NCBI GenBank assembly: GCA_045651805.1
Contig: JAZRTB010000090.1
Coordinates: 13,295-77,294 of the forward strand
Direction: 5' to 3'
Source of the DNA: Clostridia bacterium
Lineage (GTDB): Bacteria > Bacillota > Clostridia > UMGS1883
Length of the DNA: 64,000 nt
Part shown: positions 3,994-50,700 of the stretch, piece by piece
Layout: each line of letters opens with the position of its first letter
How positions within the stretch are numbered: the first letter of the stretch is position 1
Translations under genes and position numbers: made by a program
The notes under the pieces: model-generated
The model's database searches: none
Seen by the model: the letters and a program-made list of their open reading frames with translations, nothing else
What the model was told of the DNA's origin: nothing

Positions 3994-6915
3994 TTAGTGC
4001 AAATAGTTATATGCCGAAGTTGTAAACTTCGCTATTGCAGTATATACATCTCCTTTTTCGATGTTTCTCTTCAAGTATCCGTTTATACTATCTATAAGAG
4101 TACTATATACTGTTCCGTCTGCATTGTAGACAGTTATTGTTACAAGCTGTGCTGCATCTGCAACAACAAGGTTATCAACACACACACCATATGTTGTACT
4201 ATTAAACTTATAAAAATCTTTACCGTCTACTTCAAGCGTTTTTTTATGTCCATAATGATCTGTAAATGATGCTACCGCATACATATCAGAAGTGAGATTT
4301 TTGAAATAACCGGTAAGCTTAATATTGTTTTCCAATGTTACTGTTGTTCCTACATACTTACTGTCTGAAACTTTTTCATTTTTAAGATGACTTACATCTG
4401 CAGTTGCATACTTCTGATATTTTTCAGCATTGGCATTAGCAGGTTTTTCAGTATTATAGTTAAAATACGCTTGTGTTGCAGCACCATAATTAAGCATATC
4501 TACAAGAGCAGTTCTTAACTCGCTATTAGTTGTTGTTTCTATTGTACGATAAGCATATGCACTCAAACCATCAACCTTAGTATTACTTACTTGTGTTCCG
4601 TCTGTCTTGTAGATTGTTACATGGATTTCATCAGCAATCTGTTTAGCTGCAAGATTTGAATAATTCATCACATAGTAATCCACACCAGAAAGCTTTCTTG
4701 CTTCCCACTCTGCAAACTCATATCTTTTTTCATTGATTTTTCCATCAGGTAAATAATGCTCTACAACTGCGTAATAATCTTTTCCTTCGAAATATTCTTG
4801 TTTTGCAAAGAAACTAATCTGCATAGAATTTCCAAGAGTTACTGTTGCACCACTAAAATCAAACAACTTTGCAACTTCAAAATCTTTTGCTACATAATTA
4901 TAATCTGTAACTTTATAAACATTTGTATTGTTTACAATAGCTTCTGCTGCTGCCTTCTCACCTTTTGAATTATCTACCACAGCAAGCTCAAGATTTACTG
5001 TAAGGTTGGGGTTAGCTGCAAGAATTTCGGGAGTGAGATACAATGCACACTTGAAATCTTTAACGCCGCTGCAAATGTAGTCATATTTCTGACCAAGACC
5101 TACTCCGAGCATTACGGGATAACGAACACCTTTTTCGATTTTCATACCGTCAACAGGAACCTTAACCCAACCAAAATCACCATAGTAACCTGCAAGATAA
5201 CATCCGTCAGCAACGAAGCTATCGTTTTCAAGGCCATCAAATGTAAGCACAAAATCTGCATACCAGTCTGCATAGGGACTTGTCTTCATATCTTCAGCAT
5301 TCTGATCCGCAACAAACTGCATTACAAAGCTGAGGGGGAGTTCTTTATCGCCCTTTGAAGTATAGTTTTTACCATCCCATATGCCATATCCTCCCGCAGG
5401 AAGAGTCTGTGCGCCAAGGTTATTAACCGTTGCTGTAGGAGCCTTGCCGATCACTTCATTACCGTTAAGGTCAGGGATTTTTGCATAACCAAGGTCTTCC
5501 ATATCGTATGTATACCCATCAACCTTTTCAAATTCTGCATTAACTGCCTTTTCTTTAGTTTCAGCAAGACCGAGGTCAAGATTTACATTGATTCCGGGAT
5601 TTGCCGCGATTACTTCAGGAGTGAAGTATATACCACACACAAATTCTCCTACTGAACTGCAAATATCAACATAGCTATAGTCAAAGCCTACACTTGTAAT
5701 TACAGGATATGTCTTATCTTTTTCAACAGTAAAACCATCAAGAGGGATCTTAACCCAAATACCATAAGAGGGGTAATAACCTGCAAGATAACATCCATTA
5801 CCTACAAAATTATTTGAAAGTCCGTCAATCTTAATGAAGAAGTCTGTTGTGTACTCTGCATATGCATTAGCCTCTGCCTCTGCTTTGCTATCCTTTGCCA
5901 CGAACTTCATCGCAACATCAAGGTCAAACGACTCTTTAGATGATCCTTTTAATTTTCCGGTAGTAAGATCATATACATAATATGAATCTCCGAAATTCAA
6001 ATCACCGTTGCCATTTTTGTCCGTAACTGTAATTGCACCAAGATTTGACACTTCCGCTTCGGGGAGAACCTTGGGAGCAGGAGTCCAGATTCCTTCCTGT
6101 ACATTCATATTGCTTGACTCAATATCAACAAAGTTCATATTGCTGCCTGCATTAGGAGTAAGAGTGTTTCCAGTTGCAGTTACAACAACAGTCTTAGAAT
6201 CGGTGTATGAAGTGATTTTTACATACTGACCATTCATAATATTGTTTGTAAATGTAATCTCGCCTGCCGCACTTACATTTACTTCAGCGTCTGTAATTTT
6301 GTTTCCTGTTATAACAACAGATTTTGCATCACCTTTTCCACCTTCGTTATCAGAGATTGCTCTTCTCCAACCGATAAATTCAGAATCAGTAACTTTTACC
6401 GCTACATCACTGAGTGCATCACCTGCACCTTCACCGAAGATGATTGCTCTTGTATTATTTGCATAGCCGTTACCGATAAATTTACATTTTTCAACAGTCA
6501 GATTCTTCTTTGATGAAATTGCACGGAATCTACCGCTGAACTCTGATTGTGCTTTTGTCATATCAATGGTAAGATTCTTAACAGTTGCATTGTCTTCAAA
6601 TCTGAATACTGAATAATAGTTATAACCATCATTAACAACATTTGTAACTGTTATTTTATGACCATTACCGTCGATTGTTACGGGATTTTTTATTTTACCA
6701 CCGGTGTTTCTTGAATCCCATTTGTAATCAATTGTTACATCAGAAAGAAGTGTAAGGGTGTCACCGGCTTTAAGCGCCTTAAGCGCTGCTTCAAGTGTTG
6801 CATAAAAAGTATCACCAATCTTTGCAACTGCTGTTTCTTCTGCCATTGCTGTAATTCCTACGCTAAGGAGCATTGAGATTGCAACAAGCAGTGATAAAAT
6901 TTTGTTGATTTTCAT
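3994..6915 (-). CDS. Secreted surface protein with an N-terminal beta-helix region and a tandemly duplicated ~155-aa domain
   Basis: 973-aa ORF with signal peptide MKINKILSLLVAISMLLSVGITAMA. The AKIGDTFYATLEAALKA... opening is typical of beta-helix proteins. An internal duplication spans aa ~287-452 and ~495-647 (CYLAGYY...W[VI]K[IV]P[LV]DG...YLTPE[IV][IL]AANP). Confidence 0.85.
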   Translation of the reverse strand: MKINKILSLLVAISMLLSVGITAMAEETAVAKIGDTFYATLEAALKALKAGDTLTLLSDVTIDYKWDSRNTGGKIKNPVTIDGNGHKITVTNVVNDGYNYYSVFRFEDNATVKNLTIDMTKAQSEFSGRFRAISSKKNLTVEKCKFIGNGYANNTRAIIFGEGAGDALSDVAVKVTDSEFIGWRRAISDNEGGKGDAKSVVITGNKITDAEVNVSAAGEITFTNNIMNGQYVKITSYTDSKTVVVTATGNTLTPNAGSNMNFVDIESSNMNVQEGIWTPAPKVLPEAEVSNLGAITVTDKNGNGDLNFGDSYYVYDLTTGKLKGSSKESFDLDVAMKFVAKDSKAEAEANAYAEYTTDFFIKIDGLSNNFVGNGCYLAGYYPSYGIWVKIPLDGFTVEKDKTYPVITSVGFDYSYVDICSSVGEFVCGIYFTPEVIAANPGINVNLDLGLAETKEKAVNAEFEKVDGYTYDMEDLGYAKIPDLNGNEVIGKAPTATVNNLGAQTLPAGGYGIWDGKNYTSKGDKELPLSFVMQFVADQNAEDMKTSPYADWYADFVLTFDGLENDSFVADGCYLAGYYGDFGWVKVPVDGMKIEKGVRYPVMLGVGLGQKYDYICSGVKDFKCALYLTPEILAANPNLTVNLELAVVDNSKGEKAAAEAIVNNTNVYKVTDYNYVAKDFEVAKLFDFSGATVTLGNSMQISFFAKQEYFEGKDYYAVVEHYLPDGKINEKRYEFAEWEARKLSGVDYYVMNYSNLAAKQIADEIHVTIYKTDGTQVSNTKVDGLSAYAYRTIETTTNSELRTALVDMLNYGAATQAYFNYNTEKPANANAEKYQKYATADVSHLKNEKVSDSKYVGTTVTLENNIKLTGYFKNLTSDMYAVASFTDHYGHKKTLEVDGKDFYKFNSTTYGVCVDNLVVADAAQLVTITVYNADGTVYSTLIDSINGYLKRNIEKGDVYTAIAKFTTSAYNYLH

Positions 6916-7200: not shown

Positions 7201-7461
7201 TTAATATTTCTTTGCTTTAAATTTCATTCTGCTTGCAAAAAAACCTCCCACAAGCGGAATGAGACTTACATATAGCCGTTTTTTCTCGTATTGCCAGTAT
7301 TGCCTTTTTTCATAAGAATCACTGAATAAAATCTTTCTGTATATTCTGTCATAAGCATCAACAAACGGAAAATAAACAGCTACAATAAACTTCATCATCA
7401 GCAGTACAAAAATTGCAATTATCACCAGTGCCGCTGCTATCCAAAAAAAGCCATTCTCCAT
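7201..7461 (-). CDS. Small membrane protein (hypothetical), co-transcribed with the TetR-family gene
   Basis: The track ORF is 7201..7503. Three in-frame starts exist (GTG 7503, ATG 7479, ATG 7461) because of an 18-bp tandem duplication. ATG 7461 follows GGTGGAG. There is one clear TM helix (FFWIAAALVIIAIFVLLMM). Confidence 0.55.
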   Translation of the reverse strand: MENGFFWIAAALVIIAIFVLLMMKFIVAVYFPFVDAYDRIYRKILFSDSYEKRQYWQYEKKRLYVSLIPLVGGFFASRMKFKAKKY

Positions 7462-7499
7462 ATTTGTCAACTCCACCATGTTTGTCAACTCCACCCTTT

Positions 7500-8048
7500 T
7501 CACATTACTTCCAACACATTGTGTAAAAACTTCATCTGCATTTCAGATGCTTCTCTGTCTTCCCAGATAACATAGTCAACCACTACTGAAATCAAGGTAT
7601 AAATGATTGGTGCTACTTTTTCAGGAGTGGAATCTATTATTTTCGCCAATTGAACAATGTTTTCGCCATATCCTTCCTTGAAGTCTTCGGCTTTGACTCT
7701 GATAGCATTTCCGTATTCCGGACTTGCCGCAAACTGAAACACAAGTCTTAATTCCTGTTTATATTGATCAATCTCGTCAAGAAACTCATTAAAAAACACA
7801 TCAGGCGTTTTCATTTTTTCAAAAACAAAATCAAAGATTCTTCCAACAACCTTTGTAATGCCATACTTCACAACACTTATGTAAATATCATCTTTTCCTT
7901 CAAACCAGTAATAAATGCTTCCGTATGAAATATTCATAGCTTTACACAAATCTCTTACAGAAGTATTTTCAAGACCGTTATTCACCAGATATTTAAAAGA
8001 CGGTTCCAGAAATTCTTTTTCTATATCCTTCACTATCTGTTCACGCAT
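7500..8048 (-). CDS. TetR/AcrR-family transcriptional regulator
   Basis: 182 aa. The N-terminal HTH (NTSVRDLCKAMNISYGSIYYWF) is typical of the TetR family. RBS GAAAGAGGTG. Confidence 0.85.
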   Translation of the reverse strand: MREQIVKDIEKEFLEPSFKYLVNNGLENTSVRDLCKAMNISYGSIYYWFEGKDDIYISVVKYGITKVVGRIFDFVFEKMKTPDVFFNEFLDEIDQYKQELRLVFQFAASPEYGNAIRVKAEDFKEGYGENIVQLAKIIDSTPEKVAPIIYTLISVVVDYVIWEDREASEMQMKFLHNVLEVM

Positions 8049-8120
8049 ATTTATTACGCACCTCTTTCACACGCAATATTTTCTCGAACACTTGCTATAA
8101 AATCGACTAAAAAAAATTTC

Positions 8121-8148
8121 TTACCACATAATCGAAATTATGTGGTAA
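8121..8148. repeat. Recombinase core-type site, left copy (TTACCACATAAT-CGAA-ATTATGTGGTAA)
   Basis: It has 12-bp inverted arms around an asymmetric 4-nt centre. The 26 bp at 8123-8148 are the exact reverse complement of 8382-8407. Confidence 0.8.
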
Positions 8149-8180
8149 AAAACAGTTTAACGCTATCTAAATGCTGGCTA

Positions 8181-8209
8181 ATTGTATCATCGAAGACGTT
8201 GTTTGTCAA
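8181..8209 (-). promoter_or_regulatory. Sigma-A-type promoter TTGACA-17-TACAAT inside inverton 1, currently firing toward the TetR operon
   Basis: The reverse complement of 8181-8209 is TTGACAaacaacgtcttcgatgaTACAAT, with an exact 17-nt spacer. Confidence 0.7.
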
Positions 8210-8268
8210 TAGTCTACATACAAAAAAATAGTATTTTAGGCAGAATGACAAAAAAATATATAGACAAA

Positions 8269-8303
8269 CAGACCAATGTTGTTGAAAATTTACCATTGGT
8301 CTG
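8269..8303 (-). terminator. Hairpin with T-rich tail inside inverton 1 (insulator between recombinase read-through and the promoter)
   Basis: 10-bp stem CAGACCAATG/CATTGGTCTG with a 15-nt loop. On the minus strand it is followed by TTTGTCTATATATTTTTTTG. Confidence 0.45.
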
Positions 8304-8381
8304 CTTGTGATGCGTTTTTTTCTTGAGTTGTGACAGTTTATAATGTAATTTAAACAGGATCACTCAACTATTCAATTTTTC

Positions 8382-8407
8382 TTACCACATAATTTCGATT
8401 ATGTGGT
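8382..8407. repeat. Recombinase core-type site, right copy (TTACCACATAAT-TTCG-ATTATGTGGT)
   Basis: It is inverted relative to 8121-8148, and its centre TTCG is the reverse complement of CGAA. It sits 11 bp from the recombinase stop. Confidence 0.8.
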
Positions 8408-8418
8408 TTTTTTGTTTT

Positions 8419-9258
8419 TCAGCAACATAAAAGTCCAAGTTTTTGAATTTGTGCTCTGTGAATTTCTCCCGATTCCATAGTGTAAATTCTTGTTGTATTT
8501 ATACTTGAATGTCCAAGTATATCTGCAAGCCTCACAATATCTTTTTGCATAGCGTAATAAGTTCTTGCAAAAAGGTGTCTGAGATTATGCGGAAAAACTT
8601 TTCTTTTATCAACCCCTGCTTCCTCACATAATTTTTTCATTTCATGAAAAACATTACTTCTGTCAAGAGGAGTTCCGCTCTTGGTAACAAAAATGCTTCC
8701 GCTTGAAATTTTTCTTTCCTTTATATATTGTGTTAATATTTTACAAAGCCTTTCAGGTAAAATAATAATACGCATTTTCCCCTTCAGGTTTATTCGAGCT
8801 TCCCGCTTTACAACTGCATCTACAGTTATAAACTTAAGCTCCGATATACGAATCCCCGTAGAACAGACTGTTTGCATCAGAAAATACAAACGTCTGTTAT
8901 TTTTATTTTTTGCAGTTTCGAGAAGCCTTATATACTCTTTTTTCGAAAGCTCTCTTTCTTTTCTTGCGAAAATTTGCTTTTGAATTTTCAACATTTTCGT
9001 TTTAAGATTATGTCTTCCCTTAAATGAAAAATAACTGTTCAAGGACGAAAGCACGGCGTTCACCCCGGAAGGAGAGTGCTTTTCTTCTAATTCCTTTTTG
9101 TAAATCAATACCAGCGATTTTGTCAGTTTTCGCTCTCCGCACCATTTCAGAAAAACTTCAATATCCCTGACATATTTGTCTACTGTTGCTGCTGACTTTT
9201 CTTCATCAAGAAGATACTGCTTGTAATTGTAAAGTTTGTTTTCAATAGTCCTATTCAA
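8419..9258 (-). CDS. Tyrosine site-specific recombinase (phage-integrase/Xer-like family), 279 aa
   Basis: TTG start. Catalytic motifs are STGIRISEL (Arg), HNLRHLFAR (H-x-x-R) and LGHSSINTTRIYT (His...Tyr). About 70% identical by eye to the 43902..44741 recombinase. Confidence 0.9.
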   Translation of the reverse strand: MNRTIENKLYNYKQYLLDEEKSAATVDKYVRDIEVFLKWCGERKLTKSLVLIYKKELEEKHSPSGVNAVLSSLNSYFSFKGRHNLKTKMLKIQKQIFARKERELSKKEYIRLLETAKNKNNRRLYFLMQTVCSTGIRISELKFITVDAVVKREARINLKGKMRIIILPERLCKILTQYIKERKISSGSIFVTKSGTPLDRSNVFHEMKKLCEEAGVDKRKVFPHNLRHLFARTYYAMQKDIVRLADILGHSSINTTRIYTMESGEIHRAQIQKLGLLCC

Positions 9259-9373: not shown

Positions 9374-10699
9374 ATGCAGGCAGAAATTACAAAACGTGGG
9401 AACGGATTTATCATCACTCCGCAATACATAGACAGTTATTCTAAAAAGCTACCGCAAATTGCAGCAGATACAAAACCTTTAAGTTTAAACACAGTCAAAG
9501 AAGCTCTTTCAACAAGCACTCTGGCCTGCACCGCATATGCAAAAGCATCAGGAAAAAAGCTTTTTTTCAAAGTACTTTCCACGGCAGTTGCCTTTTGTTG
9601 CATATTGGTATTTTTTTGTTGTTTTTCTTTTTCAACGGGAATTTATTGCAACGGTGAAAAAATAGCTGCGGGACATAGTAAGGAGGAGTTTCTCTCCGCT
9701 TTAAAAAAAGCGCAGGCAACCGCTTTAAAATATGGAATTTCTGACCTGAAACTTAATTTTTCAACATCCCCGGTATTAAGCCTGAAAAGTGATATCTTAT
9801 CCGCAAATGCACTTCACGACAAAATTCTTGCATCATCGGGGCACTTTGTTATGGGATACGCCCTGTACTCGGACGGAGCTCTTGTTTTCAACACCGCGAC
9901 CCGTGAAACTGCACAGGAAGTTCTCAATGAATACATATCGTCCTGCTCTATGAACGGAAATGCAACCCTGTCATCAAAGGTAGAATGTAAACCTGCCCTT
10001 ATTTTTAAATCCAATCTTTCAGACAAAAAAGAGTGCCTTGCCATTCTTCAGGAAAACAAAAGCATAAATGTTGTCAGCGTAGTAAACTCCACATCGTCAA
10101 AGGTTATCCCTTTTGAAGTACAGCAGGAGCACGATTCTGCCCTTTATGTCGGAGAATCAGTTACCGTGGTCGAGGGTGTCAACGGTAATGCACAGGTATC
10201 TCTTGAAACCGTTTACGAAAATGGTACAGAGCAGTCAAGCCACGTCACATCTGAAAAAATAATTGCAAATCCTGTGGCTTCTGTAGTACGGGTAGGTACA
10301 AAATACAAAAAAGTCCTTGAAAGCGGTCTTAATTACCCTCTCAAGGGGGTTCTTTCTTCCCCTTTCGGGTCACGTTGGGGTTCTGTTCACGAGGGAATTG
10401 ACATTGCCGTAGCAGAAGGTACTCAAGTCAAAGCCGCTGAATGCGGAACAGTAAGCTATGTCAGCGAAAACGCAGGCGGTTACGGCAAGCTCGTCCGTAT
10501 CAACCACGGTTATGGGGTGGAAACCGCTTATGCTCATCTCAGTCAGATAAATGTTTCCGTAGGTCAGAATGTTTCAAAGGATACAGTTATCGCTTTAAGC
10601 GGAAATACAGGAAGGTCAACAGGTCCCCATCTCCATTTTGAAATACTGGAAAACGGCAATCCTGTTGACCCTCTGAAGCATCTCCCTAAAGCTTCTTGA
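9374..10699 (+). CDS. M23-family metallopeptidase with membrane anchor and G5-like domain
   Basis: C-terminal motifs HEGIDIA ... GYG..V.I.H ... GPHLHFE. RBS AAGGAGG. Confidence 0.85.
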   Translation: MQAEITKRGNGFIITPQYIDSYSKKLPQIAADTKPLSLNTVKEALSTSTLACTAYAKASGKKLFFKVLSTAVAFCCILVFFCCFSFSTGIYCNGEKIAAGHSKEEFLSALKKAQATALKYGISDLKLNFSTSPVLSLKSDILSANALHDKILASSGHFVMGYALYSDGALVFNTATRETAQEVLNEYISSCSMNGNATLSSKVECKPALIFKSNLSDKKECLAILQENKSINVVSVVNSTSSKVIPFEVQQEHDSALYVGESVTVVEGVNGNAQVSLETVYENGTEQSSHVTSEKIIANPVASVVRVGTKYKKVLESGLNYPLKGVLSSPFGSRWGSVHEGIDIAVAEGTQVKAAECGTVSYVSENAGGYGKLVRINHGYGVETAYAHLSQINVSVGQNVSKDTVIALSGNTGRSTGPHLHFEILENGNPVDPLKHLPKAS

Positions 10700-11258
10700 T
10701 TTTTTTGGTTTTCTTGTCAACACATACAATGACGTAACCGTCTTTGTACATACACATATCCTTGAAACGTTCAAGAGGATTTTCCTCTTCATCTTCAAGC
10801 CTGAAAGCGACTGCACTGCTGTCAGAGCTTTCTCCCGCACAATAATAACCGTATTTTCTGAAATTACGATATACACCTCTGTGACTTAATATGTAACAGA
10901 TTTCATCGCTGAACTTTGCATAGCTCTTCTCCGTTATTTTCTTAAGGCGGATATTGTTGAATTCCAGGGCAGTTTCCTCCGGCGAAAAATCGTTTTTGTC
11001 ACTTTCTCTGTATTCCCCATACATTATCTGCCGTCCGCTCTGGGTAACAAGGATTCCGTGGTGGCGAGTGGTATCAATTGCTTTTAAAAGCCGTCCTTCC
11101 ACAATATTCCCGACTTTGGCAGCTTCTTCTCCGCCTACGAGCCAGACTTTCATTCCCCCGGATATTCCCTGAATTTCAACTTCCAGGCTTCTGTCGGTTA
11201 TTTTTGCCTGTCCTTTTCCGATTTCTGCAAGGGGTGTAAGTTCAATTGTTTTTTTCAT
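10686..11258 (-). CDS. Hypothetical protein
   Basis: 190-aa ORF with no motif I recognise. It converges on the M23 gene with a 14-nt overlap. Confidence 0.5.
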   Translation of the reverse strand: MKKTIELTPLAEIGKGQAKITDRSLEVEIQGISGGMKVWLVGGEEAAKVGNIVEGRLLKAIDTTRHHGILVTQSGRQIMYGEYRESDKNDFSPEETALEFNNIRLKKITEKSYAKFSDEICYILSHRGVYRNFRKYGYYCAGESSDSSAVAFRLEDEEENPLERFKDMCMYKDGYVIVCVDKKTKKIKKL

Positions 11259-11355
11259 ATCATCATTCCTTTCAGTAAATATTATGTTTTTTTCAAAATT
11301 TTATTATTAATTTGTGAACTTTTGGTTTTTTAACAAAATTTTTCAAAATTAGATA

Positions 11356-11383
11356 TTGAATTTTATTTTTTCTGTGGTATGAT
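11356..11383 (+). promoter_or_regulatory. groESL promoter TTGAAT-16-TGgTATGAT (extended -10)
   Basis: Read directly from the sequence. No CIRCE (TTAGCACTC-N9-GAGTGCTAA) is present in 11259-11429. Confidence 0.55.
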
Positions 11384-11417
11384 ATAGTATGTTGATTAAT
11401 GTTTATTATTTATTTAG

Positions 11418-11714
<297 letters not shown>

Positions 11715-11728
11715 TTTATTAGGAGTGA

Positions 11729-13369
<1,641 letters not shown>

Positions 13370-40273: not shown

Positions 40274-43200
40274 TTAGTCGTGAAGGTCTGTGTTAGCAAG
40301 AGCAAGAGGTGTGATACCGTCTGCTGCTACTACAAAGAGCTTAATCTGGTCATAAGCGTCTGTTTTGTTGGGATGTGTATATCCTGAAAGATCCTTTACA
40401 AAACCTATTGCTGCATCATAGCGGCTACCTGTATCTTTTGTTACTGCGAAGTCAATAACTTCTGCAGTTACAAGCTTTTCGTCAAGGTATCTTGCAACGA
40501 TAAGCTTTTCTGTACCTGTTGCACCTGAAATTGCAGCACCATTGAGGCAATTTTCTGTACCGAGAGAAAGTTCACGGATTGCAACGGGAGCAAGCTTTCT
40601 TGTAAATGTCTTAGATTCAGAGTAACCATTCTTTGCAGCAGTAATTGTAACTTCTGCCTCTGTGGGGCTTGTTACGTTAATAGCTGTTACTGTACTGTCA
40701 CCAACTTTATATGTGAGTGCGGGGCTGTCTTCCATAACCTTGTAACCTGCGGGATTGTTTGCGAGGTCGCTTTCATCCTTATCGATTGTAGTACCGTCAG
40801 TCCATGTAAGGCTGATAGTCTTAGACTGGAGAGTTCCGTTTGAAAGAACAGGGTGAAGATGCTCTGCCGCATAAAGAACAAGTGCTGCATTAAGCGCTGC
40901 ATTTACTTCGATAACGTTATCATCATCATAATCCTTGACTGAAAGATTATCTGCATATAAAACGCCTGTGCCACTGTGTTCGTAGAGAATATGTCTTACT
41001 GAACCGCCTGTTCTTTTCGTAACTATTGCTGCATTCAGAACAGGGATTTCATTGATAATGATTCCGTCGATTGATACCTGATAGGTTTCTGAAAGTACGT
41101 TGTAATCTATAAGAAGGTGTGTCCATTCGCCCTTCTTTGCCTTAACGCTTTCAGGCATATCGTACCAAACCACAACATCGCCTTTAACGTTATACTCATA
41201 GCCGTTAACCACAGGATTTGTTGTTGAAAGACCAACCTTGCCTGTGTTATAGTTAACGTTAATTATTATACCACGTGCACCTGCAGAAGTTGTTACTACA
41301 AAACGCGGAGAACCTGTAGAACTGCTATCATATTTGAAATCTGTTTCAATTACAAATCTTTCTTTACGACTACCGTCGCCGTATTCTGTATGTGCAATAG
41401 TTGCTTTAGTTCCAACAGCACTGTCAAGCTTAAGTACGTTTCCGTGTGCAACATCTTCATCTGCAACGATTTCATATTTTGCCCCTTCAGGAAGAGTGTA
41501 GTCAGTGAAATCATAAGCATAGTGAAGTGCTGTAGCTATTGAAGTTACATCACTAATTACCACGGGGAACACAACTGTATCACTTGCACTGCCTGCTGTG
41601 ATTGTAGCTGTCATATTAACAGTAACATTTTCGCCATAAGGTGCAAGCTTTGCTACTGTACCATCGTTTGAAATGTAAGCTGTGTTGCTTGATGCCCAGT
41701 TAACTGCAGCACCATATGTAGCAGGATCGTAGTCAGCATAACCGTTGTCAAGGTCAAGCACAGCACCAATTGCTGAAGCTTCACCGATGTTTGACTTTTC
41801 AATAAGCTCCTTATAGAAAGCTACCTTGTCTGCACCAGAAAGTGTGGAAATAACAGAATTAAGAGACTGTGTTGTATATACGTTTATATCATCCACATAA
41901 ATTGTTGCGCCTGATGAACGGTCAGCAAGATAGAATGAAAGGCTTGTAATGCTGTCAAGGCTTGCAAGACCGATACCAACAGTGCTTGTTCCAATCTGGT
42001 TTCCGTTCAAATAATGCTTAGCTGTTTTATTTGCAACATCTATAACAATCTTGAAGTTTGCATAGTTTGCACTGTTTGTATCGTAAGCTATTTTATCAGT
42101 ATTGTTTACGCCATGCCAACCATTTCCTGCAGAGCCACCATTATATGAGTTATTTCTTCTTATCTCACCACCGTAGTTAATGAACTCGGCTATTTCAGCT
42201 CCATTAACCTTGAAACCGTAGTTTGTAACATTGCCGGTACCGGCAGTACTATGATTCTCTGTTCTGAGCTTGAATTCCATTATAAGCTCTTCTGCGTTTG
42301 TAAGAGAAGGCAATGTTTTGAAATTATATGTTGCATATGTCTTCATACTACCACTGTATGTGAAAGAACCAACCTTATTGCCTGCCTCTGTCACTACAGT
42401 ACCGGAACCACCGCTTTCAATGGTGAAGTCACTAACCGAGCCAACTTTATCAAAGTCAACAGTCTCACTCTGACCTGTGATTGCAAGAGGAAGAATTGTT
42501 ACATTGTATGATTTTGAAACGCTTTCCTCGCCAACCTGAAGTGTACCTGTGATTGTAGCTGTTGCTACATCAAGAACAGGACGCTTAACTGTACCGTCAG
42601 CAGCAATAGCGGGATTTGTTGATGTCCAGCTAAGGGTTACGTCAGCGGGAAGGTTCTCTGCTGTGAACTTAAGGTTTGTTGTAAGTGCACTAAGGCTTCC
42701 GCCGTTTGCAACATAAGCTTCATCAAGAAGTGATGAGTAGCTAGCAAGCTTCTCTGCAGGTGTTGCAGATGCAAGTGCTTCTTCATCAGAAACTTCCTGA
42801 TATACAACGAAGTCATCTACATCAAATGTAGCCGTACAATTATCTGTTGCGTTAGTGAAGTAGAAGGATGTGATTTTAACATAACCACCCTCGGGAATTC
42901 CGTCTGCACCTGCAAAATCTACAAGTGTTTTAGCTGAGAGGGCACCTGTTGCAAGTGTCCATATCTGACCTGTCTGGGGGTCATACTTAAAGTCGATATC
43001 CTTACCTGCTGTGAAGTAGCTGCTTGAAAATCCGCTTGTAGAATTAACTCTTGCAAAAGAAGAAGAAGAGAACGCCTTATAGCTTGTTCCGTCAGCGTTA
43101 TATACACCACCGTTAAGTCTGATGTCCGCACCATATGAAGCAAGGTCTGTGAAATTGTCAACATCAAACTTAATGCTTACAGGCTTGGTGTAATCAATAG

Positions 43201-43684
43201 TTGAAGGCATTGAGTATGTGATGTTGGTACGTCCCTGACTTGTTTCGCCTACATGAGTAGCACCGATAACAACATTGAACTTACCGTCAACGATTGAAGA
43301 AGGAGTGTTTGTGCCCCTCACTTGTATTGTCCAACCGGTTGCCTCTTTAGAGAAATCGTTAGCGTGAAGCACATTAGTTGTTTTTGCCTTTACAGTAACA
43401 TTAACTGCTTCTCCTCCGTTGATTGTGAGTGTTACAGTTGCATCGTCAAAAATGGGACGAGTAACAACACCTGTGTTTGAAATAATAGCTTCGTTAGAAG
43501 ACATTATCTCATCATTTTCGCCAAGCACGAGATTGCTTGTAACGAACTTTGCAGGCTGACCGTTAGCGATATCTTCAAAAGTTACCGCCAATGCGGGAGC
43601 CTCAGTTTCCTCTGCCATTACAGTGAATGCGCACATAGAAAGTGCCATAATCATTGCAAGACAGAGTGCCATGAGTTTTTTCAT
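40274..43684 (-). CDS. Giant secreted surface protein, paralogue L (1136 aa)
   Basis: Signal peptide MKKLMALCLAMIMALSMCAFTVMA. The first ~100 aa are nearly identical to the 44912 gene. Small Ig-like modules repeat (L.F....LP..V.LSW.S.N..I..DGTV.RP). The C-terminal ~75-aa module is shared with the paralogues. Confidence 0.9.
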   Translation of the reverse strand: MKKLMALCLAMIMALSMCAFTVMAEETEAPALAVTFEDIANGQPAKFVTSNLVLGENDEIMSSNEAIISNTGVVTRPIFDDATVTLTINGGEAVNVTVKAKTTNVLHANDFSKEATGWTIQVRGTNTPSSIVDGKFNVVIGATHVGETSQGRTNITYSMPSTIDYTKPVSIKFDVDNFTDLASYGADIRLNGGVYNADGTSYKAFSSSSFARVNSTSGFSSSYFTAGKDIDFKYDPQTGQIWTLATGALSAKTLVDFAGADGIPEGGYVKITSFYFTNATDNCTATFDVDDFVVYQEVSDEEALASATPAEKLASYSSLLDEAYVANGGSLSALTTNLKFTAENLPADVTLSWTSTNPAIAADGTVKRPVLDVATATITGTLQVGEESVSKSYNVTILPLAITGQSETVDFDKVGSVSDFTIESGGSGTVVTEAGNKVGSFTYSGSMKTYATYNFKTLPSLTNAEELIMEFKLRTENHSTAGTGNVTNYGFKVNGAEIAEFINYGGEIRRNNSYNGGSAGNGWHGVNNTDKIAYDTNSANYANFKIVIDVANKTAKHYLNGNQIGTSTVGIGLASLDSITSLSFYLADRSSGATIYVDDINVYTTQSLNSVISTLSGADKVAFYKELIEKSNIGEASAIGAVLDLDNGYADYDPATYGAAVNWASSNTAYISNDGTVAKLAPYGENVTVNMTATITAGSASDTVVFPVVISDVTSIATALHYAYDFTDYTLPEGAKYEIVADEDVAHGNVLKLDSAVGTKATIAHTEYGDGSRKERFVIETDFKYDSSSTGSPRFVVTTSAGARGIIINVNYNTGKVGLSTTNPVVNGYEYNVKGDVVVWYDMPESVKAKKGEWTHLLIDYNVLSETYQVSIDGIIINEIPVLNAAIVTKRTGGSVRHILYEHSGTGVLYADNLSVKDYDDDNVIEVNAALNAALVLYAAEHLHPVLSNGTLQSKTISLTWTDGTTIDKDESDLANNPAGYKVMEDSPALTYKVGDSTVTAINVTSPTEAEVTITAAKNGYSESKTFTRKLAPVAIRELSLGTENCLNGAAISGATGTEKLIVARYLDEKLVTAEVIDFAVTKDTGSRYDAAIGFVKDLSGYTHPNKTDAYDQIKLFVVAADGITPLALANTDLHD

Positions 43685-43763
43685 AGTGTTTTCCTCCTAA
43701 ATAAAAATTTTTTATAGTTAAATTAAATTAAATTTTCAAAGTACAGTGCGTAAAAATGTCTGT

Positions 43764-43795
43764 TTTACCACATAATTTGCATTATGTGGTAGAGA
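43764..43795. repeat. Recombinase core-type site A (TTTACCACATAAT-TTGC-ATTATGTGGTAGAGA)
   Basis: 32 bp, the exact reverse complement of 44795-44826. It lies in the 5' leader of paralogue L. Confidence 0.85.
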
Positions 43796-43822
43796 CAAGT
43801 CCACCTATAATTACACATGAAT

Positions 43823-43851
43823 AGTATAACTCTGTTTTCTAAATTTGTCAA
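43823..43851 (-). promoter_or_regulatory. Sigma-A-type promoter TTGACA-17-TATACT inside inverton 2, currently firing into paralogue L
   Basis: The reverse complement reads TTGACAaatttagaaaacagagtTATACT. Its -10 box lies ~30 bp from site A. Confidence 0.7.
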
Positions 43852-43901
43852 TACAAAAAGGGAAATATTTTTTACAAAAATGTTAAATTGCGGAACTTTT
43901 T

Positions 43902-44741
43902 TCAGCATTGCAGAAGTCCCAGCATCTGAAGCTGTTTTCGGTGCTCCGCACCTGATTCAATAGTATATATTCTTGTTGTGTTTATGCTTGTGTGTCCAAG
44001 CAAATCAGCAAGACGCACAATATCTTTTTGCAGCGAATAAAAAGTCCTTGCAAAAAGATGCCTGAAATTATGCGGAAAAACCTTTTTCTTTGATACCCCC
44101 GCATTTTCGCACAAAGTTTTGAGCATTTTCCAAATATTTGACCTGTCAAGGGGATTCCCGCTTTTTGTTACAAAAACACTGCCTTTTACAAGTTTTTCTT
44201 CCTTTATATATTGTACAAGCATTTTGCACAACTGTTCGGGAAGAATGACAACGCGCATTTTTCCTTTGCATCGTATTATTGCCTGCCGTGCTTTTACTGC
44301 CCCTACTGTAATATATTTAAGTTCAGATACTCTAATACCTGTTGAACAAATTGTCTGCATCAAAAGCCATAATTTTTTATTTCCGCTTTCAAGAGCTGCT
44401 GAAAGAAGTTTGTTATATTCTTCTTTTGTCAGTTCTTTTTCTTTGTCGGAAAAGATTTGTTTTTGTATTTTCAGCGTTTTAACCCGACAATCATTCCACC
44501 CCATAAATTCTAAAAAACAGTTAATTGATGAAATCATAGAATTAACGCTTCGGGGAGCATAGTTTTGCGAAATATGATTTTTGTAATCAACAACAGTTTC
44601 TTTTGTAACTTTTCTTTTTTTCAACCATTCAAAAAAAGAAAGAACATCTCTTGAGTATTTTTCAATAGTAACAGTTGATTTTTCCTCCGCGTAAAGATAA
44701 CTGCGAAAATTTGTAATCAATTGTAAAGTTATTTCCGGCAT
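43902..44741 (-). CDS. Tyrosine site-specific recombinase, 279 aa, encoded inside the invertible cassette
   Basis: STGIRVSEL, HNFRHLFAR and LGHTSINTTRIYT motifs. The start is trimmed to ATG 44741 (MPEITLQL; GAGAGGAA RBS), giving the same 279-aa length as the 8419..9258 paralogue. The 316-aa track ORF would read through site B. Confidence 0.9.
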   Translation of the reverse strand: MPEITLQLITNFRSYLYAEEKSTVTIEKYSRDVLSFFEWLKKRKVTKETVVDYKNHISQNYAPRSVNSMISSINCFLEFMGWNDCRVKTLKIQKQIFSDKEKELTKEEYNKLLSAALESGNKKLWLLMQTICSTGIRVSELKYITVGAVKARQAIIRCKGKMRVVILPEQLCKMLVQYIKEEKLVKGSVFVTKSGNPLDRSNIWKMLKTLCENAGVSKKKVFPHNFRHLFARTFYSLQKDIVRLADLLGHTSINTTRIYTIESGAEHRKQLQMLGLLQC

Positions 44742-44794
44742 AGAACACATTCCTCTCGTTTTCTTTTTATTATAACCCAAACCATCTGACAAAT

Positions 44795-44826
44795 TCTCTA
44801 CCACATAATGCAAATTATGTGGTAAA
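44795..44826. repeat. Recombinase core-type site B (inverted copy of site A; centre GCAA)
   Basis: TCTCTACCACATAATGCAAATTATGTGGTAAA, in the 5' leader of paralogue R. Confidence 0.85.
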
Positions 44827-44911
44827 CGGAGTTTTTTCCTATTATAATACATAAAATCGAAATTTAATTAAATTAATTATATAACAAAATATTTTTAAGG
44901 AGGAAAACACT

Positions 44912-47383
44912 ATGAAAAAACTCATGGCGCTCTGTCTTGCTATGTTAATGGCACTTTCAATGGTATCATTTTCAGTAATGGCAGAGGAAACTGAGGCTCA
45001 CGCAGTGGCGGTAACTTTTGAAGATATCGCTAACGGTCAGCCTGCAAAGTTCGTTACAGGCAATCTCGTGCTTGGCGAAAATGATGAAATAAAGTCTTCT
45101 AACGAAGCTATTATTTCAAACACAGGTGTTGTTACACGTCCCCTTTTTGAGGATGCAACAGTAGCAATCTCAATTAACGGAGGAGAAGCTGTTGAAGTTA
45201 CTGTAAAGTCACAGATAGTAGATGTGAAATACTATAATGATTTTACTACAGACGATGCAGGAACAGGAACTTCAACAAGAACATTCCCTTCTTATGAGGG
45301 TTTCTCTGTATCAACAGCAGCAGGAACAGAAACAACTATCCAGGATGGCGTGGTTAAGGTGGATATCAAAGCCGACTACGAAAAAGGTGTAAAAGACCAC
45401 AGAACAAATTTCTACACCAAAATTCCAAGTTTTAGCTCATCAAAGCCTGTAGTAATTCAATTTGATGTTGATAACATAGCAAACATCAAGGGGTCTTCCG
45501 CAGAAATAAGACCAACAATTTATGCTTATCCTACAAATGGCGGATCGCGAGTTCACTTGGGCACAATTCAGTTTGCAAAACTTACAGCAACAGGATTTGG
45601 TTCATCAGGATTTTGTTCGGGCGATAGTATCCCCGTCAGCAAATCAGTGGAAATTCGTTATATCCCGACAACCGGTGAAATATGGCTTAACGGAAAGAAG
45701 TGCTCTAAAAACCTTTTAACCTTGAAAGAAGGCGACTATGAATACGTACAATTAACAGGGTTAACTATTTGTTGTGCCGGAAGTGATTGTTTCGCCCAGT
45801 TCGATATGGACAATTACGTAGTATATCAAGAAGATTCCAAAGATGAAGCGATCTTAAAAGTTACTCCGGAACAACGAAAGGAATATTTGGAAACTTTCCT
45901 TACCCCTGAAGTTTTTGCAAACGGTCAGAGCCTTGCATCCGTTTCTTCAAACCTGACATTCTCAACAGGTCTTGATATGGAAGCCCTTGGTGCAAGCCTT
46001 GTATGGACAACAAGCGATCCTTCTGTAATTGAAGCTAACGGCACAATTCATCCTAAACAGAATACTTCTGTTAACGCAGTTGTGCAGGGAACTCTTACTT
46101 TCGGTGAAGAAACAATAACAACCAAACCTTTTAACATCAAGCTTGCTCCTGCCGGAACAGTTGAATGTACAGCAGCAAAATTCAACTGGGACTTCGAAGA
46201 TGTAGAAGTTGGTGCTACCTCTTCCACAACAACTCAGAATTGCTATTCGGGCGGTAAAAAAGGCATTTATTTCAGCGGAGGAAGCCATGAATTTTTCAAT
46301 GATTCCGAAAGAGGTATGATGCTTAAATCCACAAACCCCAATATAATCCAATTTTCTGCAGGGCAGCGTGGTCCCGGATATAACAAGAGATATGTGTTTG
46401 GATTTGATTACAAATTTGAACTCAATGACAATGCAACATGGAGTACTTTTTCTACCTATATGCGAGGTAACGGTAGCCAGCAAGTCGGTCTTTCCTATAC
46501 GAATGCCGATTTAACTGTTGGCGATAAGACGACTGCTTACGGTAACGCTACTGCTGATAAGGTAGATGCATTATTTGTTCACAAAGTCCCCTGCTATGCT
46601 GAAATAACCAGACCCGGTGTTTGGCATCATATAGACATAGACTTTAATTCCACAAAGAATGTTTACACAATCTACGTTGATGACAACAAGATAAATGAAA
46701 TTCCGGGAAGTTCAGCTAATGGTGTGGGTTATGTTGCTTATTGGATGCACACCCAGCTTGGTAATATGAAAACCTTCTATATGGACAACATGTATGTTAA
46801 TGAATACACTGATTCAAATGTTGTAAAGGCGGATGCTGCACTCAGAAGAGCAGTATATGATGCAGCTGCTCGTGAATCAGGTCAGAATGGTTTGACCGGT
46901 CCTTACAGAACAATCAACAGAAAAGACCTCTCTTCAGTTATAACAAGCACAACCATTCCTACTCCTCAGACGGATTCTAACGGTGCAACTCTTACTTGGA
47001 AGGTTAATGGCGAGCCTCATACTGAAACTACTTATACCGCACCATCATCACCCCAAACAGTTACATTTGAGGTAACTGCTACTTCTGGTGACGTGAGCTA
47101 CTCACAAACTTTCACAAACAGATTTGCTCCTGTTGAAATTGCTGACTATACTTTAGACGAAAGAAACGTTAAAACAGTTACAATAGAAGGCGATTACGAA
47201 GGAAAAAGACTTGTGATAGCAAAATATTCTGCTAATGACGGACGTCTTCTGCTTGTAAAATCAATTGATATTACAAGCAGTGTAGTTGAAGTCGCTGACG
47301 AAAATATTAACGATGTTGGTTGTATAATTAAGTATTTTATATACGACAAAGGATTGTTAGTTCCCTATGCTTTTGGAAGATAA
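44912..47383 (+). CDS. Giant secreted surface protein, paralogue R (823 aa)
   Basis: Signal peptide MKKLMALCLAMLMALSMVSFSVMA. The 5' ~300 nt are ~90% identical to paralogue L on the opposite strand. The RBS context AGGAGGAAAACACT-ATG is identical. Confidence 0.9.
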   Translation: MKKLMALCLAMLMALSMVSFSVMAEETEAHAVAVTFEDIANGQPAKFVTGNLVLGENDEIKSSNEAIISNTGVVTRPLFEDATVAISINGGEAVEVTVKSQIVDVKYYNDFTTDDAGTGTSTRTFPSYEGFSVSTAAGTETTIQDGVVKVDIKADYEKGVKDHRTNFYTKIPSFSSSKPVVIQFDVDNIANIKGSSAEIRPTIYAYPTNGGSRVHLGTIQFAKLTATGFGSSGFCSGDSIPVSKSVEIRYIPTTGEIWLNGKKCSKNLLTLKEGDYEYVQLTGLTICCAGSDCFAQFDMDNYVVYQEDSKDEAILKVTPEQRKEYLETFLTPEVFANGQSLASVSSNLTFSTGLDMEALGASLVWTTSDPSVIEANGTIHPKQNTSVNAVVQGTLTFGEETITTKPFNIKLAPAGTVECTAAKFNWDFEDVEVGATSSTTTQNCYSGGKKGIYFSGGSHEFFNDSERGMMLKSTNPNIIQFSAGQRGPGYNKRYVFGFDYKFELNDNATWSTFSTYMRGNGSQQVGLSYTNADLTVGDKTTAYGNATADKVDALFVHKVPCYAEITRPGVWHHIDIDFNSTKNVYTIYVDDNKINEIPGSSANGVGYVAYWMHTQLGNMKTFYMDNMYVNEYTDSNVVKADAALRRAVYDAAARESGQNGLTGPYRTINRKDLSSVITSTTIPTPQTDSNGATLTWKVNGEPHTETTYTAPSSPQTVTFEVTATSGDVSYSQTFTNRFAPVEIADYTLDERNVKTVTIEGDYEGKRLVIAKYSANDGRLLLVKSIDITSSVVEVADENINDVGCIIKYFIYDKGLLVPYAFGR

Positions 47384-47753: not shown

Positions 47754-50700
47754 TCAGCCGTTTAAGTCGGCATTTTTAAATGTTATGGGTGAAATGCCTT
47801 TATCGCCTATAACGAATACCTTAAGTGCATCTACATCTGCATTTTTCGCAGGTGCAACAAAGCCTGCAAGCTTAAGAATACCTGTTTCAGCACTATAGTT
47901 TTCATTGTCTTTAAGGCTGATAATATTTGTGGAAACAAGCTTCTTGCCGTTATACTGTGCGATTACAACCTTATCTGTTTCAGCATTTACGCCTTCAAGC
48001 CATACACCGTTAAGAGCAGCTGTGCTTGCTGCAAGTCCGCGGATAGACGCAGGAGCAACTCTTCTTCTGAAGGTCTTTGTCTCTGTGATGCCGTCCTTTG
48101 TTGCAGTTACTGTAACTTCAACAACCTGCGGATAATCAACATTAACTGCTGTTGCATCCACGCCGTTAATCTTCCATGAGATTTCGGGACCGTCTGTTAC
48201 ATAAGTGTATGTAGAAACGTTAGAAGGCTTGATTGAGCCATTCTCTTCAACATCTCTGTTAAACGCATCGGCTGCTATATTCCAGCTTCTGCCGATTGTC
48301 ATTGAAGGAAGCTCGCAGTTTGTAAGAACGGGTTTGATATAGCTTGAACCGAAGTCGATAAGTGCCGCATTAAGTGCCGCATTTACTTCTGATTCGGTGC
48401 TGTTTGTGAACTTACGGATAGAAACGTTATCCACCCAAAGTTCGCCCTTGTTACTACATTCAAGTGAGATACCTCTTACAGAGCCACCACCGTTTTTAGT
48501 AGTTTTCATATTAGCCTGAAGCATGGGAAGCTCGGTATAAAGCTTGCCGTCAATATAGAGAACGAATGTCTGTGAAAGTGCATTGAAATCAACTGTTACG
48601 TTAATCCACTCGCCCTCTTTTTCCAAAAGCTCGGAATCCATCTGGAGGTAAACAGTTTTTGCGCTGTTAGCCTTAAGCTTTGATCCATCGGCTTCTGCTT
48701 CGGGAAGTGTTGTGGTAACGGCTACCTTATTTGTTACGAAGTTAAACATAACAGAAACACCGTTGTAAGCCGCAATAGTCTTTATCACGATACCGCCGCT
48801 GGAAGCATCGTTTCCGTTAACGTACTTGACATCTGCAGAAACAACCGCTCTGCCCTTCCAGTCGCCATAGCTGATAATACCGATATTATCAGATGATGTG
48901 TGTTTGCCGACTTCGGCAGTTGAAAGGTAAAGAACCTTACCGTGTGACGCATCTTCGTCGTCAACATAAGTTGCCTTACCTGCAGAAACAGTTGTGTCAG
49001 AGAAGTCTGACGAAGAAAGAAGCTGTGTTCCGTCGGGTGCTGTCATTGTGAAAGCTACCGTGTCGCTTGCCGCACCTGCGGAGATTGTCGCAGTCATTGT
49101 AACTTCATCTTTGGTAAGGAATGATGCTGATTTAACAACTTCACCGTCATTTGAAATGTATTCGGGTGCAGATGATTCCCACGCGATGCTTACGCCTATG
49201 GCGTCAAGGTCGTAATCCGCATATCCGTTATCAAGGTCAAGCACGTCGCCAATAGCACTAACCGTACCGATTGAAGATTTTTCAACAAAGCCCTTGAAAA
49301 GTGCTACCTTTTCTTCTGCAGGAAGTGTAGCGATAGCATCATCAAGAGTGTTTTCTGCGTAAAGCGTGATATTATCAATATCAAATGCACCGCTTGCAGA
49401 TCTCCAGTCAACGTAAAGGTTAGCAGATGTAATATTTTCCAAATCAACCGAAGGACAAGTTGCGGTTGATATTGTTTTACCATCTATAATATAGCTTACA
49501 ACTTTTGTTAAATTATCAATTTTAATCTGAAGATTAACAAATTCAGAGGGCGGTTTAATATAACCGGTAGTAGAACCACCATACCAAGCCTGTCCTGTTG
49601 CCCAGTCCTGACCATGAAGCATAGTTGAACGGTTTATAAATTCAGCTACCTCTGTGTTGTTAATACGAAGACCTACATTGATAACATTTGCCATGGGTGT
49701 TGAAGTCTTATAATCAAAGGACATTATGTAGTAGCGTCCACTTCCTAAAGAAGGAGCATTATCGAAGGAATAAGTAATTACCTTCGATGTTCCATTTGAA
49801 AGAGAACTTGAAACTCGTGCGTAGCTATTGCCGTTGTCAACAACATTCACTACACTTGCTTCGCTGCTTGAAACATTCCAACCGGGTTCCGCAATAGCCG
49901 CACCGTCTGAAAGATCATAGCTGTCGAAATCAACAGTTTCACTTCTGCCGGAAAGCGAGAGAGGAAGAACTGTTACATCGTATGTTTTTACCATATCTTC
50001 CGCACCGTCAACTGAAAGTGTGCCTGTGATTTGTGCTGTCTTTTCATTTTCAAGGTCACGCTTTATTGTACCGTCTTCTGCGATAACATCAGCATCTGAA
50101 GTTTCCCATGAAATGCTTATACCTGCAGGAAGTTCTTCATCGGCTGTGAATTTAAGGTTGTTTCCAACGCCTTTAAAGCTACTGCCATCGGTTACATATT
50201 CCTCTGAAAGGAGATATGAATAATTTGCAAGCATTTCTTCGGGAGTTGCTGTAAGAAGTGCTTCTTCAGCAGGAATTTCTTCATACACGACGAAGCTATC
50301 GATTGCGAAATTACCTGTACATCCGCCACCTGCATTAGTGAACATAATTGCTGTCATTACTGTGCTTGCAACTTCATCAGATGTGTGACCTTCACTCATA
50401 TAGAAGCTTGAATCTGTGCTGTCAAAAAGATTCTTCGCACATTTTACACCGTTGCCCCAGAATTCGCCTGTCTGGGGATTGTACTTGATTTCCACATTAG
50501 CTTTTCTGCTGGCACCCATCCAGTTGTTACCAAATCCGGCATTACCGGGATACATTCTTGCAACTGTTGCAGTATCATAATAACCAATTCTTGTACCTTC
50601 TGCATCATATCTGTTACCTGAAATACGGATATCAATACCTGATGAAGTAACTTCTGTGATGTTAACAAGGTCAAAACGGATTACAACAATCTTATCACCT

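Follow-up and report, generated by a model that had tools for sequence, protein, structure and literature searches.

Two putative promoter-inversion switches with shared dif-like sites and switch-specific centres in a Clostridia genome, and predicted site-built terminators at one of them

Two promoter-carrying segments, each bracketed by an inverted pair of dif-like recombination sites, appear to act as promoter-inversion switches in the 64,000-nucleotide stretch of a gut Clostridia bacterium genome analysed here (GenBank assembly GCA_045651805.1, contig JAZRTB010000090.1; hereafter the window). At a probability of roughly 0.6, we propose that these sites invert two promoter cassettes, that their centres restrict the choice of partner, that sites of the locus-1 type additionally have terminators built upon them, and that the sites of locus 2 are passive in transcription. 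Two paralogous Xer-like recombinases would each flip one cassette. At locus 1, a strong promoter would thus face either a TetR operon or, when turned round, the 3′ terminus of the recombinase gene, and at locus 2 a 1-kb cassette with its own recombinase would toggle a promoter between two paralogous surface-protein genes. The asymmetric central four nucleotides would set the polarity of each site and thereby lead to inversion, not deletion, and, since strand exchange requires matching central regions, each site would most likely recombine with no site other than its partner.

The two promoter segments are bracketed by four near-identical sites, ACCACATAAT-N4-ATTATGTGGT, arranged as two inverted pairs:

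8121 to 8148, site 1 (locus 1, far site, on the TetR side): TTACCACATAAT CGAA ATTATGTGGTAA, 0 mismatches
8382 to 8409, site 2 (locus 1, near site): TTACCACATAAT TTCG ATTATGTGGTTT, 2 mismatches; recombinase stop codon 9 bp away
43765 to 43792, site A (locus 2): TTACCACATAAT TTGC ATTATGTGGTAG, 1 mismatch
44798 to 44825, site B (locus 2): CTACCACATAAT GCAA ATTATGTGGTAA, 1 mismatch

A pattern search for TTACCACATAAT-N4-ATTATGTGGTAA, allowing up to 3 mismatches, found these four matches and none elsewhere in the window, whereas 100 dinucleotide shuffles of the window gave 0 matches; no additional half-sites were found in the window either. The reading of the four as recombinase core sites with common arms and asymmetric centres, as originally predicted, is supported. 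The arms had also been described as identical over 12 bp; what is common to 8/8 half-sites is the 10-bp arm ACCACATAAT, but the full 12 bp occur in only 5/8, the outer arm of 8382-8409 reading GGTTT and the locus-2 inner arms TAG/CTA. The inverted repeats are longer than had been described: the one at locus 1 spans 30 nt, and the one at locus 2 is perfect over 32 nt. When read outward, the sites present the loops that had been claimed, UUCG at both sites of locus 1 and GCAA at both sites of locus 2. The tails GAAA+U8 (8120-8109, minus strand), AACAGACA+U5 and ACGGAG+U6 are likewise as described, but the sequence after the stem end at 8407, given as U7GU5, is U6GU5, and U7 is obtained only by counting the closing T at 8407.

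The candidate enzymes acting on these sites are encoded next to the near site of locus 1 and inside the locus-2 segment:

8419 to 9258, minus strand: Xer-like tyrosine recombinase 1, 279 aa
43902 to 44741, minus strand: second Xer-like tyrosine recombinase (recombinase 2), 279 aa when counted from the second ATG, with 59% identity to recombinase 1

Both proteins match PF00589 (5.7e-29 and 2.5e-28) and also contain a SAM-like N-domain; GIRxSEL, HNxRHxFA and LGHxSxxTTxIY are motifs that do not vary between the two and that align to XerA 5hxy. By these sequence features, both are assigned to the tyrosine recombinases of the Phage_integrase fold. Their best-scoring models are XerA, XerD and XerC; NCBIfam XerA (cut-off 220) gives 134.6 and 156.7 bits, and NCBIfam XerD (cut-off 329.6) gives 122.8 and 141.2 bits. 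Scores far below all curated cut-offs, together with four sites in two inverted pairs, indicate that the loci are not a Xer/dif system proper. The dif site of E. coli, GGTGCGCATAA-TGTATA-TTATGTTAAAT, has a length of 28 bp and a centre of 6 bp (PMC3025954). The sites of the window can be aligned to it as TTACCACATAA-TCGAAA-TTATGTGGTAA, and are on this alignment dif-like core sites of 11+6+11 bp for two Xer-like tyrosine recombinases. The crossover region would, by homology, comprise 6 bp, T-NNNN-A, asymmetric in its middle four bases only.

At locus 1 the surroundings of the sites are organised as follows:

3994 to 6915: secreted protein, 973 aa, downstream of the TetR gene and the 100-aa membrane protein
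7201 to 7503: membrane protein, 100 aa, downstream of the TetR gene
7500 to 8048, minus strand: TetR-family regulator, first gene downstream of site 1
8149 to 8381: invertible segment, 233 bp, in opposite orientation in the 88%-identical relatives L100/L101
8181 to 8209, minus strand: predicted promoter, TTGACA-17-TGnTACAAT, 11/12 match, predicted start at about 8174
8250 to 8321: internal stem-loop upstream of the promoter, stem 8269-8278 with 8294-8303, A7 at 8250-8256 and T7 at 8315-8321

The predicted promoter is now directed through site 1 at the TetR gene, the orientation that we call ON, and no alternative or fixed promoter with at least 9/12 matches was found between site 1 and the TetR start. 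The internal stem-loop at 8250-8321 looks like a bidirectional terminator-like element, and 37 aligned relatives keep it as AGACCGG...CCGGTCT together with its A/T tracts. On the other side of recombinase 1 follow genes for an M23/G5 peptidase, a 190-aa protein, GroES and GroEL (9374-13369), a gene order that is syntenic in L100-L104. In most W1-type loci (for instance L011, L014 and L019), a conserved palindrome TTGTAAyGAnCATTACAA is located 15-35 nt past the far-site T-tract, before the TetR start codon, and is probably the TetR operator; it is missing upstream of the divergent TetR gene of the window (8049-8120).

Locus 2 is built differently, with the recombinase gene inside the segment:

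40274 to 43684, minus strand: secreted aBig_2 protein, 1136 aa, currently fed by the predicted locus-2 promoter
43793 to 44797: invertible segment, 1005 bp, which contains the gene of recombinase 2 and a promoter directed outward; W2-type relatives are L056 and L084-L089
43823 to 43851, minus strand: predicted promoter, TTGACA-17-TATACT, 11/12 match, reading through site A into 40274-43684
44912 to 47383, plus strand: 823-aa paralogue with signal peptide and 5′ UTR as in 40274-43684, predicted to be fed after inversion

The 5′ UTRs and N-terminal coding sequences of the aBig_2 pair form a 373-nt inverted repeat (43344-43716 and 44880-45252) that is 86% complementary. A third paralogue, at 47754-51158 on the minus strand, has an identical signal peptide and is without a recombinase site. 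A search for known RNA families at both loci found none.

Comparison with relatives places both loci in a larger family of switches. Species-representative genomes scanned with both recombinases yielded 99 loci, of which 80 were kept, all in gut Clostridia MAGs and at 58-74% identity; a protein search gave more than 7,900 recombinase homologues at E<=1e-60, and a metagenome scan with recombinase 2 a single useful locus, L081. Nearly every locus of the family follows the locus-1 plan, in which the recombinase stop codon is followed by an A-rich tract, the near site, the cassette, the far site, a T-tract and TetR, the latter being the conserved downstream gene across the family. The family cassette is about 260 bp long and contains a promoter TTGACA-17/18-TATAAT, whose -35 element begins 61-63 nt from one site; the locus-1 promoter of the window recurs at equal site distance in more than 60 relatives. 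The locus-2 plan is found in six loci, namely the window's own (W2), L056, L084, L086, L087 and L088, with L085 and L089 as partial contigs of such switches. Both orientations occur naturally. L076 and L077 hold one segment in opposite orientations, contigs encoding the identical recombinase P0062 hold 5 segments one way and 2 the other, and in the syntenic L100/L101 the locus-1 segment is flipped with respect to the window. With inverted repeats, an internal promoter, a recombinase gene 9 bp off or inside, and both orientations among relatives, both loci have, at the sequence level, the properties of invertible-promoter switches.

Many contigs of the family break off precisely at a core site, and others, of about 1.0-1.1 kb, reach from one site to the other and no further (L001, L020, L074, L096, L097, L099 and L104; L085), ends which assemblers give when both orientations co-occur in a sample. 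In L007, L008, L011, L019 and about 25 further loci there is a third core site, identical in its centre, at 33 bp from the near or far site. Since this 33-bp module sits at different ends in L007 and L008, such switches would have more than two states. A tandem arrangement is found in L036 (2129-4170), where a recombinase gene, a switch with centre CAGC, a second recombinase gene, a switch with centre TGAA and TetR follow one another, and where the first switch would drive the second recombinase. In the 81%-identical relative L102 (3099-3122) the cassette is gone and a single site (TTCG) fuses the near and far outer flanks; this junction reads as a deletion scar, which the direct-repeat nature of palindromic arms would allow.

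Neither recombinase, nor the TetR protein, had a match in exact-protein look-ups. Among public sequencing runs the best contained at most 7% of the sampled words of the window, and a query with L044 found one metatranscriptome with 8% of the words. No description of the switch family, nor of its site sequence in this context, was found in the literature, and the supplementary text searched for an inverton catalogue contained no match. The family is large, and in gut Clostridia apparently undescribed.

Throughout 68 related switches, with 15 centre types, those partner sites that could be paired carry an identical centre; an identical centre was also the criterion by which sites were paired, and no mixed-centre locus was noticed in the raw listing. 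Third sites, where present, carry the centre of their switch too, and centres differ between switch types. Centres shared by partners in 68 switches would change only in step, which fits homology-dependent strand exchange. GCAA is found in 5/6 W2-type loci counted, the window's locus 2 among the five. The pairing of CGAA with GCAA recurs in MAG CAYLPQ01 and also in metagenome assembly ERZ27317359, on two contigs that possibly are not from one genome, while in MAG JAZQVQ01 both L018 and L019 have the centre CGAA. Among multi-switch genomes, 4/5 have differing centres, no more than random pairing gives. CGAA and GCAA differ at 2 positions. Because GroES and GroEL are located between the two loci of the window, a deletion joining these loci would be costly. 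By analogy with other tyrosine recombinases, the difference between the 4-base centres probably prevents recombination across the two switches, a plausible reading that the original prediction had already put forward.

The second proposed layer of control lies in transcription through the sites. In switches of the locus-1 type, a fixed T-tract just beyond each site would turn the site hairpin into a terminator. The two elements in the window are:

8109 to 8153, minus strand: outward hairpin and U-tract at the far site; 17 pairs (8153-8116), loop UUCG, U-tract 8116/8115-8109
8384 to 8419, plus strand: outward hairpin and tail at the near site; 10 pairs, loop UUCG, -10.4 kcal/mol, followed by U6GU5

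Both were scored terminator-like in the outward direction by a consensus scan (17 pairs with U8, and 10 pairs with U6GU5, respectively). The site stems have just 3 G-C pairs, which satisfies the scan rule of at least 3 and fails the rule of at least 4 used for the terminator of Clostridioides difficile cwpV (PMC2784873). The T runs are not a chance feature of the locus: among the AT-rich positions of the window, 0.07% have at least 8 T within 6 nt and 0.4% have at least 7 T within 2 nt.

Palindromic arms give hairpins automatically, and it could be argued that the folds are the RNA image of the DNA sites, that the T runs belong to AT-rich intergenic DNA, and that promoter direction alone does the switching. 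The inward strands of the sites indeed fold nearly as stably as the outward strands, the loop identity varies among relatives, and L059, L061 and L076/L077 have four identical arms yet no adjacent T-tract; the behaviour of locus 2, described below, points the same way. We nevertheless regard such a by-product as unlikely, because T-tracts lie outside 52/61 far and 59/61 near sites of locus-1-type loci, against 8/122 inner-flank controls, because the U8 run of the window has so rare a background, and because the far-site stem follows the orientation of the promoter. The hairpin abutting the far T-tract has a family median of -16.1 kcal/mol in the OFF configuration and 0 in ON; it is stronger by at least 5 kcal/mol in OFF in 42/61 loci and in ON in 2, in a comparison of phylogenetically related MAG loci for which in-silico inversion supplied half of the ON/OFF states. 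For observed states only, no ON relative lies below -10.6 kcal/mol, whereas 11/30 OFF loci reach -16 or less (Mann-Whitney p=1.7e-5). In addition, the extended stem covaries in the OFF configuration only. The 16-bp OFF stem has 87.5% of its alignment cells paired and 9 pairs with double-sided changes, values that 0/500 shuffles reach and that slid controls fall far below. For the ON stem, double-sided changes show no excess over shuffles (297/500 and 110/500), but its covariation score and percentage paired are modestly raised, with 9 and 13 of 500 shuffles, respectively, attaining them.

This orientation dependence at the far site stems from two arm types. ACC-type arms are found as near outer and promoter-proximal inner arms, and GCA-type arms, with an AAGGCA/TGCCTT extension, as far outer and promoter-distal inner arms. 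The far-site stem would accordingly extend through its G+C-rich flanks to the T-tract only when the promoter-distal cassette end lies adjacent, that is in OFF, where the resulting terminator would double-lock the TetR operon. In the ON state of most of the family, arms and flanks would mismatch and transcripts would read through. At the near site, the hairpin and T-tract would halt the flipped promoter before an antisense run into the recombinase gene, and the conserved internal bidirectional element suggests that the cassette is insulated by terminators. The idea of terminators at locus 1 is thus upheld, as a prediction, by the family-wide outside T-tracts and the covarying extended stem. We would give even odds to the complete version of this scheme, in which one inversion turns the promoter, breaks the TetR-side terminator and weakens the recombinase-side one, the internal terminator adds a further barrier, and the clade of the window has an attenuated ON state.

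The same pairing could act in DNA and not in RNA: extended palindromes and A/T tracts might aid recombination by bending, cruciform extrusion or accessory-protein binding, and might bias the direction of switching as FimB/FimE do. OFF gives two long palindromes (A/A and B/B arm types) and ON two hybrids, as this explanation would have it, and covariation counts do not separate DNA from RNA pairing. The strand asymmetry that could do so, an excess of G.U over A.C, is not clear, and T-rich flanks confound it. Such a role at the DNA level nonetheless seems improbable to us. The G+C-rich extension at the far site ends exactly at 7-9 T on the transcribed strand, which is the signature of an intrinsic terminator, and the cassette has a further classical bidirectional terminator-like element. 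Moreover, Xer-type tyrosine recombinases contact arms of about 11 bp, not of 16-18 bp.

Returning to site-built terminators, the window itself is atypical at locus 1, where one arm sequence occurs four times and where UUUUUU and UUUCUU, the two inner flanks, both pair with the outer flank AAGAAA. Owing to these identical arms and pairing flanks, its far-site terminator is predicted in ON as well as in OFF, at -17.7 kcal/mol in the present orientation and -18.9 kcal/mol after in-silico inversion. A cwpV-type terminator, formed in one orientation, is therefore predicted for 42/61 loci of the family and not for the window. There, and in its closest relatives, the purine-rich outer flank would pair by G.U with the U-rich leader to give a terminator in ON too. 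The doubt that the original prediction had expressed about the ON/OFF logic of locus 1 was well placed, since the ON hairpin of the window (-17.7 kcal/mol with U8) exceeds that of all 31 relatives observed ON. An ON-state terminator at locus 1 sits oddly with a working switch. The output of the window in ON is probably attenuated, and the base of the far-site stem, all A-U or G.U, may make the terminator leaky. The 88%-identical L100 remains partly orientation-dependent (-16.0 kcal/mol with a 2-nt gap in ON against -22.5 kcal/mol in OFF), and differs from the window by a compensatory change, UUUCUU/AAGAAA versus UUUCCU/AGGAAA, which argues for selection on the OFF stem in the clade of the window too.

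A U-tract hairpin had been claimed for every outward-directed transcript, and this does not extend to locus 2. Neither locus-2 site scored terminator-like in the outward direction in the consensus scan, and the T runs there are only modest evidence against the background, as 11% of AT-rich positions have at least 5 T within 10 nt, and 4% have at least 6 T within 8 nt. The locus-2 folds do gain outer stems of 4-5 bp that reach the U5/U6 runs in both orientations, but in W2-type relatives the outer flanks are not kept as U-tracts, nor is the outer-stem pairing kept in L084, L086 and L056. The toggle requires read-through on both sides of locus 2, and we read its sites as passive 5′-UTR hairpins with no convincing terminator. 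The UUUUUUCCU run after site B was also considered as an anti-Shine-Dalgarno sequence, and it showed no pairing with the ribosome-binding site in minimum free energy folds.

These results bear on the fullest form of the original prediction, according to which all four sites are leaky attenuators or 5′ stabilisers aided by classically stable UUCG and GNRA tetraloops. Their outward loops and the outer stems of locus 2 are in its favour, yet we judge it very unlikely. The loops are closed by U-A and not by C-G at all four sites, so that there is no cUUCGg bonus and UUCG and CGAA have equal model energy. Loops also vary among relatives, with UUCG in 41, UUCA in 8 and 13 others (AUCG, UCAG and UCAA among them), while W2-type loci have GCAA in 5, the window's locus 2 included, and UCAA in 1 (L056); in these sequences the tetraloop class is not conserved. 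Since the orientation of a centre cannot change without its partner, the predominance of UUCG may reflect inheritance and not selection. A role as 5′ stabilising hairpin is unlikely as well, because the hairpin begins about 24-27 nt from the predicted start site, too far for a 5′-end protector in Bacillus mRNA decay, and attenuation at locus 2 would run counter to the read-through that its toggle needs on both sides.

Passive sites at locus 2 and site-built terminators at locus 1 would together describe a switch family that is compact, occurs widely among uncultured Clostridia and is assembled from a dif-like site, a consensus promoter and three predicted terminators. Phase-variable surface proteins and regulators shape the escape of gut bacteria from phages and host immunity, and mechanistic knowledge of such switches comes almost entirely from E. 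coli, Bacteroides and C. difficile. If the proposed scheme holds, a single inversion would couple promoter direction with conditional termination and so give a tight OFF state, and identical protein-binding arms would be reusable at several loci, the 4-nt centre alone separating them. Both the promoter-terminator flip and the centre logic could serve as orthogonal genetic parts.

Among known systems, Xer/dif has the same 28-bp site with an 11+6+11 layout and inner arms CATAA/TTATGT, and its recombinases XerA, XerD and XerC are the best matches to those of the window. It differs from the loci described here, which have four site copies in inverted pairs and dedicated recombinases, and which are predicted to invert promoters and not to resolve chromosome dimers. 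The loxP and FRT spacer variants lox511, lox2272 and F3/F5 likewise combine identical arms with differing central spacers, which is the logic on which the original prediction drew; they are engineered and their incompatibility was measured, whereas the sites here are natural, have only 4 asymmetric nucleotides and would be incompatible by analogy. Locus 2 resembles Salmonella Hin/hix in its invertible segment of about 1 kb with its own recombinase and an outward promoter at one end. Hin, however, belongs to the serine invertases, depends on Fis and an enhancer, and drives one operon, while locus 2 has a tyrosine recombinase and would toggle two paralogous surface-protein genes. E. coli fimS (FimB/FimE) shares with locus 1 a short invertible promoter cassette that adjoins its tyrosine recombinase gene, and the recombinase transcript of fimS is, according to the account cited in PMC2784873, affected by an orientation-dependent terminator in the switch. 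The fimS element has 9-bp inverted repeats, depends on IHF and Lrp, and has a Rho-dependent terminator, in contrast to core sites of 24-32-bp palindromes with predicted intrinsic-type terminators here. The closest parallel for termination is C. difficile cwpV, in which inversion by RecV makes or breaks an intrinsic terminator at the junction of repeat and invertible DNA that forms in OFF only (PMC2784873). At the level of the family, an orientation-dependent stem and poly-U terminator flipped by a tyrosine recombinase is predicted here as well. The cwpV promoter, however, is not part of the invertible DNA, and switching there works through the terminator alone, whereas in the present switches the promoter is inside, terminators are predicted at both ends and in the middle, the core site itself forms the stem, and hardly any orientation dependence is left in the window.
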